Assembly (NCBI RefSeq): GCF_056712565.1
Contig: NZ_CM160072.1
Length of the DNA stretch: 64,000 bases
Direction: 5' to 3' (one strand)
Below are positions 49,551-55,362 of this stretch, in pieces. Every line of letters starts with the position of its first letter. Within the stretch, counting starts at the first letter, position 1. The notes under the pieces were generated by a model. It was not told where the DNA came from. It saw nothing but the letters and a program-made list of their open reading frames with translations, and did not search any database. A program made the position numbers and the translations under genes.

Positions 49551-50797
49551 TGAAGTGGCACACTGAATTTGGCCACCTGAACAGAGGTGATATGCTCACC
49601 TCAGAACAACACAGGTGCTCCAATGAAAAAAAGAAATTTCAGCGCAGAGTTTAAACGCGAATCCGCTCAACTGGTTGTTGACCAGAAATACACGGTGGCA
49701 GATGCCGCGAAAGCTATGGATGTTGGCCTTTCCACAATGACAAGATGGGTCAAACAACTGCGTGATGAGCGTCAGGGCAAAACACCAAAAGCCTCTCCGA
49801 TAACACCAGAACAAATCGAAATACGTAAGCTGAGGAAAAAGCTACAACGCATTGAAATGGAGAATGAAATATTAAAAAGGCTACCGCGCTCTTGATGTCA
49901 GACTCCCTGAACAGTTCTCGATAATCGGGAAACTCAGAGCGCATTATCCTGTGGTCACACTCTGCCATGTGTTCGGGGTTCATCGCAGCAGCTACAGATA
50001 CTGGAAAAACCGTCCTGAAAAACCAGACGGCAGACGGGCTGTATTACGCAGTCAGGTACTTGAGCTACATGGCATCAGCCACGGTTCGGCCGGAGCAAGA
50101 AGCATCGCCACAATGGCAACCCGGAGAGGCTACCAGATGGGACGCTGGCTTGCTGGCAGGCTCATGAAAGAGCTGGGGCTGGTCAGCTGTCAGCAGCCGA
50201 CTCACCGGTATAAACGTGGTGGTCATGAACATGTTGCTATCCCTAACTACCTTGAAAGGCAGTTCGCCGTGACCGAGCCAAATCAGGTGTGGTGCGGTGA
50301 TGTGACCTATATCTGGAGGGGTAAGCGCTGGGCGTACCTCGCCGTTGTTCTCGACCTGTTCGCAAGAAAACCAGTGGGCTGGGCCATGTCGTTCTCGCCG
50401 GACAGCAGGCTCACCATGAAAGCGCTGGAAATGGCATGGGAAACCCGTGGTAAGCCCGGCGGGGTGATGTTCCACAGCGATCAGGGCAGTCATTATACGA
50501 GCAGGCAGTTCCGGCAGTTATTGTGGCGATACCAGATCAGACAGAGTATGAGCCGGCGCGGAAACTGCAGGGATAACAGCCCAATGGAACGCTTCTTCAG
50601 GAGTCTGAAGAACGAATGGATGCCGGTGGTGGGTTACGTAAGCTTCAGCGAGGCAGCTCACGCCATAACGGACTATATCGTTGGATATTACAGCGCACTA
50701 AGACCGCACGAATATAACGGTGGGTTACCCCAAACGAATCGGAAAATCGATACTGGAAAAACTCTAACGCGGTGGCCAGTTTTTGTTGACCACTTCA
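49551..50797 (+). mobile_element. IS911 (IS3 family) copy 1, probably inactive
   Basis: left end tgaagtggcacactgaatttggccacctgaaca, right end ...ggccagtttttgttgaccacttca; slippery site reads A5G, and a 1-nt deletion near the orfB 3' end lets the ORF run past the IR. Confidence 0.85.
49623..49895 (+). CDS. insN: IS911 OrfA (C-terminus altered)
   Basis: [49 protein letters not shown]... Confidence 0.8.
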
Positions 50798-50901
50798 AGA
50801 GAAAAGAACCGATGAAGGTGGCCAGTACATTTTGTGTGGTGACGTCTTCAACAACTAAACGCGTAGCTCTGGGAGTCACATTAGTAGTGGCTGAACCGTA
50901 G
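49951..50901 (+). pseudogene. insO: IS911 OrfB transposase, frameshifted at the 3' end and read through into flanking DNA
   Basis: DDE transposase ORF; comparison with the second copy at 55116-55358 shows a 1-nt deletion that removes the native stop. Confidence 0.7.
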
Positions 50902-51152
50902 GCTGTGACCATGATACTCAGCGAAAATGTGGTCACTGCCAGCATACTCGATGCCAGTATGTTCAGAATGTTATCGACTGCTTCCGCACCAACCTTCACG
51001 GAAACCGACTCAGGTATCATTGATTTAAAAAGAATTGATAAAAGGGCCGTTATTATCGCGACAATTGCGAATAACGTTGCCCTGAACCATAGTTTTTTAA
51101 TTGTCTGCTTCAGCATCCATTTCCAGCGTGAAATCATTCTGCATTCCCTCAT
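50798..51152 (-). pseudogene. yjhE: membrane-protein gene remnant truncated at its 3' end by IS911
   Basis: ORF beginning at 51152 with hydrophobic helices runs straight into the IS911 right end. Confidence 0.45.
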
Positions 51153-51199
51153 ATTGCGGCCGAGATAATAATTGCCGCCCCCAGGACGGCATGTTGCTA

Positions 51200-54169: not shown

Positions 54170-54204
54170 CGCTTCAATGGGAAATTGTTGTCGCCATTGT
54201 TCGA

Positions 54205-54507
54205 TTAACGCGTATTTTTCAGCGACTCCTGTGCAAAATCTACAGTTGCTTTTTTTAATATATCTCGCTCAAGGCGAGCTTCATTTAACGCCTTACGCAG
54301 TTGTAGAATTTCAGATTCCAGTTCAGCCACCGTGCGGGAACCAGGAGTACCGAGCCCTTTTCTGGCGGCGGTAACCCATTGTCCTAAAGTGCCTTCAGGA
54401 AGAGATAATCGGGAAGCGCCTTCACTGATCGAAAGTTGATTTTCAAGAACCGTTCTGACAGCTTCGGCTTTGAACTTTTTAGAGTAACGTTGGGTTTTTC
54501 TGCTCAT
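54205..54507 (-). CDS. IS3-family OrfA (HTH)
   Basis: 100 aa, MSRKTQRYSKKFKAEAVRTV...; leucine-zipper-like C-terminus. Confidence 0.8.
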   Translation of the reverse strand: MSRKTQRYSKKFKAEAVRTVLENQLSISEGASRLSLPEGTLGQWVTAARKGLGTPGSRTVAELESEILQLRKALNEARLERDILKKATVDFAQESLKNTR

Positions 54508-54562
54508 TATTAGCTCCTTCTGATGCCATTCTATTTCAGGAAGGAGTGTCCGTTAAACTCAG

Positions 54563-55362
54563 GCTACCTCAGGAAAAACCGTCCTGAAAAACCAGACGGC
54601 AGACGGGCTGTATTACGCAGTCAGGTACTTGAGCTACATGGCATCAGCCACGGTTCGGCCGGAGCAAGAAGCATCGCCACAATGGCAACCCGGAGAGGCT
54701 ACCAGATGGGACGCTGGCTTGCTGGCAGGCTCATGAAAGAGCTGGGGCTGGTCAGCTGTCAGCAGCCGACTCACCGGTATAAACGTGGTGGTCATGAACA
54801 TGTTGCTATCCCTAACTACCTTGAAAGGCAGTTCGCCGTGACCGAGCCAAATCAGGTGTGGTGCGGTGATGTGACCTATATCTGGACGGGTAAGCGCTGG
54901 GCGTACCTCGCCGTTGTTCTCGACCTGTTCGCAAGAAAACCAGTGGGCTGGGCCATGTCGTTCTCGCCGGACAGCAGGCTTACCATGAAAGCACTGGAAA
55001 TGGCATGGGAAACCCGTGGTAAGCCCGTCGGGGTGATGTTCCAAGCGATCAAGGCAGTCATTATACGAGCAGGCAGTTCCGGCAGTTACTGTGGCGATAC
55101 CGGATCAGGCAGAGTATGAGTCGGCGTGGAAACTGCTGGGATAACAGCCCAATGGAGCGCTTCTTCAGGAGTCTGAAGAACGAATGGGTGCCAGCGACGG
55201 GCTATGTAAGCTTCAGCGATGCAGCTCACGCAATAACGGACTATATCGTTGGATATTACAGCGCACTAAGACCGCACGAATATAATGGTGGGTTACCACC
55301 AAACGAATCAGAAAACCGATACTGGAAAAACTCTAACGCGGAGGCCAGTTTTAGTTGACCAC
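54563..55362 (+). mobile_element. IS911 copy 2, 5'-truncated by the IS600-like element
   Basis: sequence nearly identical to 50000-50797 begins abruptly at the IS600-like end; contains the OrfB 3' portion with an internal frameshift. Confidence 0.8.

Follow-up and report, generated by a model that had tools for sequence, protein, structure and literature searches.

A betaine importer gene hemmed in by insertion sequences (ISs), with directly repeated IS911 elements that recombine with each other by homology and do not transpose, is very likely the joint explanation of what is found at the island betU locus described here. The DNA analysed, a 64-kb stretch referred to as the window, is that of an Escherichia coli of the ExPEC/APEC ST95-like type, and the region concerned is the chromosomal betU locus of a leuX-associated (KpLE2-like) island, with nanXY on one side and fecEDCBA on the other. 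The locus is 100% identical to that of many complete genomes, where it is annotated likewise, and because related genomes display clean deletion and duplication of betU between the IS copies, it is to be regarded, flanking IS copies included, as an ordinary and already annotated locus. Nothing specific to this particular IS arrangement was found in the literature.

Organization of the betU locus

The order of elements in the window is IS911 copy 1, a DUF2254 gene remnant, betU, IS600 and a second IS911-family copy, and the coordinates given for them in the initial annotation proved correct. The left flank is formed by yjhE (49287..49535, plus strand), an 82-amino acid C-terminal remnant of an MFS transporter that matches Pfam MFS_1 and has the position and size of the K-12 pseudogene yjhE (b4282). 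Copy 1 (49551..50797, plus strand), annotated by PGAP as "IS911 family transposase, frameshifted", is 1247 bp long and is followed by the remnant of a DUF2254 membrane-protein gene (50799..51137, minus strand), of which about 113 N-terminal codons of 425 are left; these match positions 3-104 of the 368 of the Pfam DUF2254 profile, and PGAP describes the product as "missing C-terminus". The betU gene itself (51200..53203, minus strand) encodes an intact BCCT-family transporter with a BetT-like C-terminal domain, 667 amino acids long from the first ATG or 665 from the PGAP start at 53197. Its native upstream sequence extends for 104 bp (53204..53307, minus strand) to a homology breakpoint, where it is ended by a complete IS600 of 1264 bp (53308..54571, minus strand) that PGAP lists as "IS600 family transposase, programmed frameshift" (WP_085947616.1). 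The second IS911-family copy (54572..55366, or to 55362; plus strand) comprises IS positions 453-1247, being 5'-truncated at the IS600 end; it is the IS911B-1 of K-12 and is assigned by PGAP to the ISEc52 family. Beyond it lie yjhV (55441..55698, plus strand), the remnant of a gene for an NAD(P)-binding-domain protein (PGAP CDS WP_000177057.1; K-12 pseudogene yjhV), and then fecEDCBA. No further copies of IS911 or IS600 are present elsewhere in the 64-kb window.

The structure proposed in the initial annotation, namely IS911, a 667-amino acid BCCT transporter, an IS600-like element and a 5'-truncated IS911 in the same orientation, is thus upheld but for one label. What had been called a yjhE remnant, lying between copy 1 and the transporter, is the N terminus of the DUF2254 protein according to both Pfam and PGAP, and it is the MFS remnant to the left of copy 1 that is matched by yjhE of K-12.

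A query specific for the junction of copy 1 with the truncated DUF2254 gene found it in about 523 of 5426 complete genomes. A first search had yielded 1006 genomes with the arrangement, an overcount that is believed to have arisen because genomes resembling that of strain U14A reach 80% coverage when copy-1 sequence aligns onto copy 2.

The insertion sequences

Both IS911 copies, each described from the outset as an incomplete or defective element, are indeed defective. Copy 1 has both terminal inverted repeats (TGAAGTGG...CCACTTCA), and its slippery run reads A5G; that of the related 1250-bp ISEc52 is A6G, reportedly the canonical IS911 frameshift site (Polard et al. 1991). The A5G run is found in every IS911 copy at the locus and places orfB in the +1 and not the -1 frame; none of them has the -1 frameshift site A AAA AAG that joins orfA to orfB. 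In addition, a 1-nt deletion near position 1178 of copy 1 removes the orfB stop codon, such that the frame runs out of the element. Copy 2 is missing its first 452 bp, has lost 1 nt at position 925, within the integrase core, and has kept the right end alone, the tip of which reads CCACAACA and not CCACTTCA. HTH_Tnp_1 and rve domains, corresponding to the orfA helix-turn-helix and the orfB DDE integrase core of IS911, were found. A 3-bp target-site duplication is present neither at copy 1 (GGC/AGA) nor around the whole unit (GGC/GAC).

The two copies are direct repeats 4569 bp apart that align pairwise over 795 bp with 30 differences (96.2% identity). These differences are unevenly spread: IS positions 453-767 are 100% identical over 315 bp (50003..50317, plus strand, in copy 1; 54572-54886 in copy 2), four differences follow up to position 909, and the final 323 bp hold the other 26 and are only about 92% identical. 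The earlier description of some 800 bp of near-identical sequence thus corresponds to these 795 bp, of which only the first 315 bp, the putative crossover substrate, are identical. As a whole, copy 2 resembles copy 1 less than it resembles ISEc52 (97.5%).

The IS600 element, bounded by the inverted repeats TGAGGTGTACTGG... and TGAGGTAGCCTGA..., has intact orfA (100 amino acids) and orfB (272 amino acids) and an A7G frameshift site, and its direction of transcription is that of betU. No target duplication flanks it (TGT/GGA), and it is therefore not a simple insertion at this position. When the U14A locus, which has the IS600 junction, is compared with the locus of a betU allele of 93.8% identity, homology ends exactly at the IS600 end, the latter locus continuing with unrelated sequence. 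A promoter scan of the minus strand upstream of betU gave no match to the sigma-70 consensus, a result that is uninformative as to the promoter.

Deletion and duplication between the IS911 repeats

The initial annotation had considered the interval between the repeats to be prone to deletion or amplification by homologous recombination, and comparative genomics of the locus bears this out, since the predicted deletion and duplication junctions both exist in natural genomes. A query with the flanks only found 54 complete genomes in which exactly 1247 bp, made up of a single IS911, lie between the yjhE flank and the yjhV flank, and one further single-IS genome has an IS2 inserted in nanY. In all six of the single-IS genomes examined, the element is a hybrid of the 5' end of copy 1 with all 29 copy-2 markers, which places the crossover inside the 315-bp identical block. 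One such genome, ST95-32, is nearly clonal with the window, with 99.95% identity across 49.85 kb to the left and 100% across 5 kb to the right. A query for the junction expected from duplication recovered a single genome, SCAID WND2-2021, whose tandem duplication has a period of 5793 bp and 100% self-identity across 6102 bp, and its junction likewise falls inside the 315-bp block; as it is seen in one assembly only, it could be an assembly error. With its identical block and both predicted products in nature, the locus resembles other cases of recombination between directly repeated ISs, and mechanistically nothing unusual was found.

Two genomes with a yjhV-proximal IS of intermediate identity do not represent a clean second crossover class: the first is mosaic, its 5' end being that of a different IS, and has a group II intron, and the second is a variant in which IS30 adjoins IS911(333-1247). 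The IS history of the locus is more tangled than the scheme presented here, as illustrated by a mosaic IS in 254D-1, by the same IS30-IS911(333-1247) variant and by a 90%-identical MFS and IS911 fragment in U14A.

The six hybrid elements all have the crossover in the same block; a single event, passed on by transfer of the island, could account for them, or they could even be ancestral. If ancestral, the single 1247-bp IS911 between yjhE and yjhV would have given rise to the two-copy state once a betU-IS600 segment, circular or incoming, had integrated into it by homology, a reaction that is formally reversible. The single element is full length and of one sequence in all six genomes, whose backgrounds differ, and its 5' part is common to every arrangement at the locus, that of K-12 included. 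This polarity is nonetheless improbable. The single element has no target duplication and sits between two unrelated gene remnants, and so bears the signature of a recombinant and not of a primary insertion. ST95-32 lacks the 4.57-kb interval, yet only 21 substitutions in 49.85 kb separate it from the window. The simple IS911(1-452)-IS600 junction, the intermediate expected if IS600 had entered a complete IS911, is found in no genome at this locus, the 18 matches to it belonging to an unrelated ISEc52/IS600/IS30 cluster in Nissle 1917. Finally, the intact DUF2254 gene of U14A must precede the truncated state. Deletion of betU from the two-copy state is the preferred reading.

A probable betaine transporter of the BCCT family

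The transporter is intact, as first proposed. Its open reading frame is uninterrupted, and residues 21-506 of the product span the complete Pfam BCCT profile (PF02028, 1-485 of 485; 661 bits, E=1e-198); the score against TIGR00842 is 540 (cutoff 407). The nearest solved structures are BCCT transporters, among them a 685-amino acid chain matched over residues 9-665. The protein aligns end to end with K-12 BetT (b0314), a choline:H+ symporter (BLASTP residues 4-665, the last ~160 residues included), with which it shares a 12-TM BCCT core and, as the alignment demonstrates, the long C-terminal cytoplasmic extension of the BetT/BetU type. The exact protein occurs on 884 contigs. The gene has a patchy, mostly chromosomal distribution in 1959 of 5426 complete E. 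coli genomes, and is carried by 1527 plasmids, 1260 of them from Klebsiella.

Tn6062, an IS1-flanked composite transposon on IncHI1 plasmids of the PST6 type, carries two transporter genes, one of them betU, which is described as importing glycine betaine and proline betaine, and gives growth in LB with 0.8 M NaCl (Holt et al. 2011, PMC3139670). In pyelonephritis isolates, BetU has been described as an additional importer of glycine betaine (PMC13300293). Tn6062 was linked to the betU locus through the cloning primers printed by Holt et al. (PMC3139670), one of which, with 1 mismatch, matches E. coli chromosomes that have an intact DUF2254 gene next to betU, at the 3' end of that gene; the other was matched by eye over a 14-nt core only, because of an indel. 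In Tn6062 as in the window, a BCCT transporter of ~665 amino acids is encoded beside a DUF2254 gene. The window differs in that DUF2254 is cut to 113 codons and the flanks are IS911 and IS600 instead of IS1, and the DNA of the Tn6062-like allele is ~94% identical. The transporter is very probably the published glycine-betaine/proline-betaine importer BetU, to judge from the name that Holt et al. gave to an allele of 93.7-93.8% identity. The initial annotation had held that the substrate cannot be read from sequence, which is fair for a reader without tools; the gene does match the betU-DUF2254 module, which has been shown to confer osmotolerance (PMC3139670).

The leuX island of CFT073 lacks betU and contains a restriction/BREX-like island instead. 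BetU is said to have been described in CFT073, among other strains, reportedly by Ly et al. in 2004 (J Bacteriol 186:296), as a BCCT-family betaine transporter of uropathogenic E. coli. Given the absence of betU from that island, the published BetU gene may be the other allele and not that of the window.

Some RefSeq records, and newer PGAP annotations as well, give the protein the name betT, and a second choline importer paralogous to BetT would fit both the end-to-end alignment with the K-12 protein and the model scores, which pass the cutoff of the NCBIfam "choline BCCT transporter BetT" subfamily (751 against 695) and fall below that of the glycine-betaine equivalog betaine_BCCT (592 against 650), and are ambiguous between the two models. 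There is little likelihood of this, however, as identity to BetT is only 42%, the NCBIfam BetT model describes a subfamily and not an equivalog, and betU, unlike betT, is not linked to betIBA, no bet oxidation genes being linked to it in the window annotation. The literature moreover gives betaines and not choline as the substrate of betU, and osmotolerance in LB with 0.8 M NaCl as the property of the module (PMC3139670; also PMC13300293). The automatic name "choline transporter BetT" therefore probably mislabels a betaine transporter.

Assembly of the locus and its relation to K-12

The betU-IS600-copy 2-yjhV-fec junction of the window is shared by U14A, in which the DUF2254 gene is intact and no copy 1 adjoins betU; the intact gene, of 425 amino acids, is present in both U14A and MB165. 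The unit therefore appears to have been assembled in place and not inserted as a block. It is envisaged that betU first travelled as a two-gene betU-DUF2254 module, and that IS600, which abuts the 5'-truncated IS911/ISEc52-like copy at yjhV, interrupted the sequence 104 bp upstream of the betU start codon. A second IS911, full-length but defective, would then have truncated the DUF2254 gene and joined it to the yjhE remnant, most likely by an IS911-adjacent deletion, because target duplications are absent. From that state, homologous recombination between the direct repeats leaves one hybrid IS911 and removes betU, unequal exchange duplicates the unit, and a separate IS30-associated deletion produced the K-12 arrangement.

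The initial annotation had also likened the unit to a composite transposon, and indeed a cargo gene lies between two IS911-family copies of the same direction, which retain the left outer inverted repeat (copy 1) and the greater part of the right one (copy 2), and betU is carried on IncHI1 plasmids by a real composite transposon, the IS1-flanked Tn6062 (PMC3139670). That the IS911-DUF2254'-betU-IS600-IS911 segment arrived as a block and is still mobile is nevertheless highly improbable: neither the outer ends (GGC versus GAC) nor either IS shows a target duplication, copy 1 has no functional frameshift site and is frameshifted a second time, copy 2 has no orfA, is frameshifted and ends in CCACAACA instead of CCACTTCA, IS911 transposase is ~200-fold more effective in cis than in trans (PMC5009743), the two flanks are what is left of different genes, U14A-type genomes have the right junction with no copy 1 adjacent, and betU alleles located elsewhere, plasmids included, carry no IS911 annotation alongside.

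In K-12 MG1655, the corresponding order is yjhD-yjhE-IS911B/insO-IS30D-IS600(insM)-IS911B-1-yjhV-fecE. The same island and flanks are present at 99.8-100% identity, with the same junctions of yjhE with IS911 and of IS600 with IS911(453) and yjhV, and with the same A5G run; K-12 differs in lacking positions 335-1247 of copy 1, the DUF2254 remnant, betU and ~930 bp of IS600, in place of which it has IS30D. Because the island is far closer to that of K-12 than is the adjacent core (97.3-98.2%), the window and K-12 alleles share a recent ancestor. The K-12 arrangement, in which IS911(1-334), IS30, an IS600 remnant and IS911(453-1247) follow one another, is found in 855 genomes, and the sequence comparison indicates that these, K-12 among them, lost betU by an IS30-associated deletion. 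In the K-12 annotation, both IS911 pieces are treated as fragments of one gene; this reading of insO/IS911B as a single interrupted gene is probably mistaken, the pieces being the fused remains of two IS copies.

Biological significance

The betU product, a BetT-like BCCT secondary transporter, is predicted from the literature to act in osmoprotection by importing glycine betaine and proline betaine; it is a published accessory osmoprotectant importer, the betU module having been shown to give salt tolerance to Salmonella Typhi through IncHI1 plasmids. The importance of the locus is modest. The states of the locus (523 genomes with the arrangement of the window, 55 with a clean IS911 by IS911 deletion, 855 with the IS30-associated deletion and 1 with a duplication) show how E. 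coli chromosomes hold betU and how readily it is deleted or duplicated. A more speculative and rather doubtful extension is that the IS911 repeats constitute a recurrent presence and copy-number switch for betU in extraintestinal E. coli, with loss, duplication and IS30-mediated deletion recurring, and with selection in urine or other high-osmolarity niches sorting among them. Were this so, the insO/IS911B pseudogene of K-12 would be the scar of betU loss, and not one IS hit by two others.

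Organization of the betU locus

The source of the window is Escherichia coli, and many complete ExPEC/APEC genomes, among them HS13-1, SF-468 and O2:K1 APEC strains, share the 6.5 kb around the locus at 100% identity. IS4, nanX, nanY, ythA and yjhD lie, in that order, to the left of an 82-aa MFS remnant (49287-49535), which is followed by IS911 copy 1 (49551-50797), a DUF2254 gene remnant (50799-51137, minus strand), the BCCT transporter gene betU (51200-53203, minus strand; 665/667 aa), IS600 (53308-54571, minus strand), and a 5'-truncated IS911-family element, copy 2 (54572-55366), in the same orientation as copy 1. 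A remnant of the NAD(P)-binding protein gene yjhV, then fecEDCBA, follow to the right of copy 2. The initial annotation had this order of elements right, but what it labeled a yjhE remnant belongs to a DUF2254 membrane-protein gene, of which it is the N-terminal quarter (Pfam profile positions 3-104 of 368; marked "missing C-terminus" by PGAP). In K-12, yjhE (b4282) is an MFS fragment of 249 bp on the left side of IS911. An IS2-like element at 40529-41859 occupies a place equivalent to that of K-12 IS2K in the opposite orientation, with 97.7% identity.

Read from the sequence, copy 1 starts TGAAGTGGCACAC and finishes GTTGACCACTTCA, and copy 2 begins at IS position 453, directly after the end of IS600, and finishes ...GTTGACCACAACA; no further IS911 or IS600 copies were found in the 64-kb window. 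Copy 2 is nearer than copy 1 to an ISEc52 copy of Nissle 1917 (97.5% versus 94.0% identity), which explains the PGAP name ISEc52 as against the K-12 name IS911B-1. The 5' parts of IS911 at the locus, that of K-12 included, all read ATATTAAAAAGG where a full-length relative reads ATATTAAAAAAGG, a change that puts orfB in the +1 frame instead of the -1 frame. The motif A AAA AAG is reportedly the IS911 frameshift site, as described by Polard and colleagues in 1991, and the literature treats IS911 as a user of programmed -1 frameshifting. Copy 1 in the window is also one base short near position 1178 relative to its counterpart in strain SCAID WND2-2021, so that the orfB stop codon is gone, and copy 2 is missing one base at position 925, within the integrase core. 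With these changes both copies are defective, as had been proposed for the left one, whose altered frameshift site and missing base bear the proposal out; unlike them, IS600, at exactly 1264 bp and with both inverted repeats present, looks intact.

Deletion and duplication between the IS911 copies

The two copies had been described as about 800 bp of near-identical sequence predisposed to deletion or amplification. The length holds, at 795 aligned bp, and positions 453-767 (315 bp) are identical, but the alignment contains 30 differences, 4 of them after 767 and up to 909 and 26 in the last 323 bp. The predisposition is borne out in sequenced genomes. When the outer flanks only were used as a query, they were found exactly 1247 bp apart in 54 genomes, plus one genome with an IS2 in nanY, and the single IS911 was a hybrid in all six of those fetched: it follows copy 1 through its first 452-767 bases and has the copy-2 base at all 29 diagnostic sites beyond them, which places the crossover within the 315-bp identical block. 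Identity between the window and the single-IS genome ST95-32 is 99.95% across 49.85 kb on the left (21 substitutions, with about 39 kb of core genes included) and 100% across 5 kb on the right, and in the same core genes K-12 is 1.8-2.7% different from the window. The absence of exactly the 4569-bp interval from this near-clonal genome is best read as a deletion; that the single-IS state is instead ancestral retains a small residual likelihood, and the simple IS911-IS600 junction expected from a primary IS600 insertion was found in no genome by a junction query. With one crossover interval in all six, the single-IS genomes could stem from one deletion event, moved around with the island.

Amplification was sought with a query joining IS600, IS911 453-1247 and the DUF2254 remnant, a junction unique to tandem duplication, and was found in one genome, SCAID WND2-2021, where the unit is annotated twice. 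Self-comparison of this genome returns a 100% identical match of 6102 bp whose period is 5793 bp, the unit being longer because an IS30 lies within IS600.

Probable assembly of the locus in place

The suggested resemblance to a composite transposon is ruled against by the absence of target duplications around copy 1 (GGC/AGA), IS600 (TGT/GGA) or the whole unit (GGC/GAC), by outer flanks that are remnants of unrelated genes, by IS911 copies neither of which can make transposase, and by the arrangement in strain U14A. The activity of IS911 transposase is about 200-fold higher in cis than in trans (PMC5009743), and the missing target duplications would fit IS-adjacent deletions. U14A has the order acuR, intact DUF2254 gene, betU, IS600, copy 2, yjhV and fec, with right-hand junctions that are those of the window and no IS911 beside betU, which argues that the whole unit was built up in place.

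Further variants were seen. The yjhV-side IS911 of strain 254D-1 (L018 2405-2897) resembles copy 1 at most of the diagnostic sites between 862 and 1197 and copy 2 at its end, with a 5' part from a different IS3-family element, a mosaic that speaks for gene conversion or recombination between IS copies. A group II intron (ltrA) sits at IS position 761/762 of the yjhV-proximal IS911 in the unrelated strains SCAID WND2-2021 (L015, about 16825-19096) and 254D-1 (L018/L020). Far to the left in U14A (L021 26677-27256), an IS911-like 5' fragment (positions 1-328; 89.9% identity) comes after a full-length MFS gene, spaced as IS911 and yjhE are in the window; the MFS-IS911 junction may be old or may have come from a diverged donor. 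Given the 254D-1 mosaic and the U14A fragment, a linear scheme is too simple for the history of the locus.

The K-12 arrangement

Between yjhE and yjhV, K-12 MG1655 carries IS911(1-334), IS30D, the last ~330 bp of IS600 and IS911(453-1247), an arrangement present in 855 genomes. Its right-hand IS30-IS600 junction is that of SCAID WND2-2021, where betU persists. The island part of the window (41939-63565) is 99.8-100% identical to K-12, versus 97.3-98.2% for the adjacent core genes (55-40528), a contrast suggesting that the leuX/KpLE2-type island was recently exchanged between phylogroups by horizontal transfer. Because of the shared junction and near-identical island, K-12 appears to derive from a betU-bearing arrangement through an IS30-associated deletion, either by IS30 intramolecular transposition or by recombination between two IS30 copies. 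K-12 insO/IS911B (L003 7126-9802, equivalent to window 49551-49884 plus 54237-55366) is annotated as one gene in three fragments split by IS30D and IS600; set beside the window, insO is more likely to be what is left of two separate IS911-family copies (5' 334 bp and 3' 795 bp), now fused, that once bracketed betU.

At the betU locus IS30 occupies both IS600 position ~930 and IS911 position ~333, and these sites may be hot spots for it. It stands alone at IS911 position ~333 in 20KM2222, and it is also found at the same IS600 position in Nissle 1917 at another locus, near sat. The IS600 site lies just past the A7G frameshift site, in IS600 sequence like an IS30 end, and the IS911 site at the IS911 frameshift site; recurrences are at L015 9169-10388, L003 7460-8680, L017 4752-5852 and L019 827-1978.

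Identity, distribution and expression of betU

Of 5426 complete E. coli genomes, 1959 contain betU DNA, with alleles of three classes: one essentially identical to that of the window, beside a truncated DUF2254 gene; one of 99.7-99.8% identity, beside an intact DUF2254 gene; and one of 93.8%, located elsewhere in the chromosome amid prophage-like genes. In strain MB165 the third, as a betU-DUF2254 module (L005 3151-9401), lies near hokD, rusA, dicB and ydfABC, accompanied by MFS, gamma-glutamylcyclotransferase and LysR genes. The junction of copy 1 with the DUF2254 remnant, specific to the window arrangement, occurs in 523 genomes; a first-search figure of 1006 takes in genomes such as U14A without copy 1 beside betU. 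At ~97% identity, betU is also found on 1527 plasmids, 1260 of them from Klebsiella.

Just 104 bp of native sequence remain upstream of betU, and a promoter scan found no consensus promoter in them. Since IS600 and betU are transcribed in the same direction, read-through from IS600 is possible, if speculative. Directly 3' of the betU stop, before the DUF2254 remnant, lies a GC-rich hairpin of 8 pairs (51173-51191, minus strand). It could be a terminator or not, as it has a weak T-tail and hairpin hits are no commoner than in shuffled sequence.

The betU ORF is complete, with a full BCCT domain (Pfam), and its protein is 42% identical to K-12 BetT from end to end, the long C-terminal domain included. 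It scores 751 bits with the NCBI BetT subfamily model, above the cutoff of 695, and 592 bits with the glycine-betaine BCCT equivalog, below the cutoff of 650. The identical protein is found on 884 contigs in a public collection, labeled BCCT transporter or BetT. Tn6062 is an IS1-flanked composite transposon of IncHI1 PST6 plasmids with two putative transporter genes, and S. Typhi grew in 0.8 M NaCl once these were cloned (Holt et al., PMC3139670). With one mismatch, a cloning primer from that study matches the 3' terminus of the DUF2254 gene beside E. coli chromosomal betU, so the Tn6062 cargo is the same betU-DUF2254 module as in E. coli chromosomes. The case that this ORF is the BetU of Ly et al. 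2004 is strong but indirect. Its substrates are glycine betaine and proline betaine according to the literature, in which betU encodes an importer of betaine, not choline, and BetU is listed as an extra glycine-betaine importer in pyelonephritis isolates (2026 paper, PMC13300293). Newer PGAP annotations (51200-53203; L002) read "choline BCCT transporter BetT", assigned via the subfamily model; in light of the betaine role, this name is probably an error that is now spreading. The locus itself is real, ordinary and already annotated, a known accessory osmoprotectant transporter gene amid IS debris.
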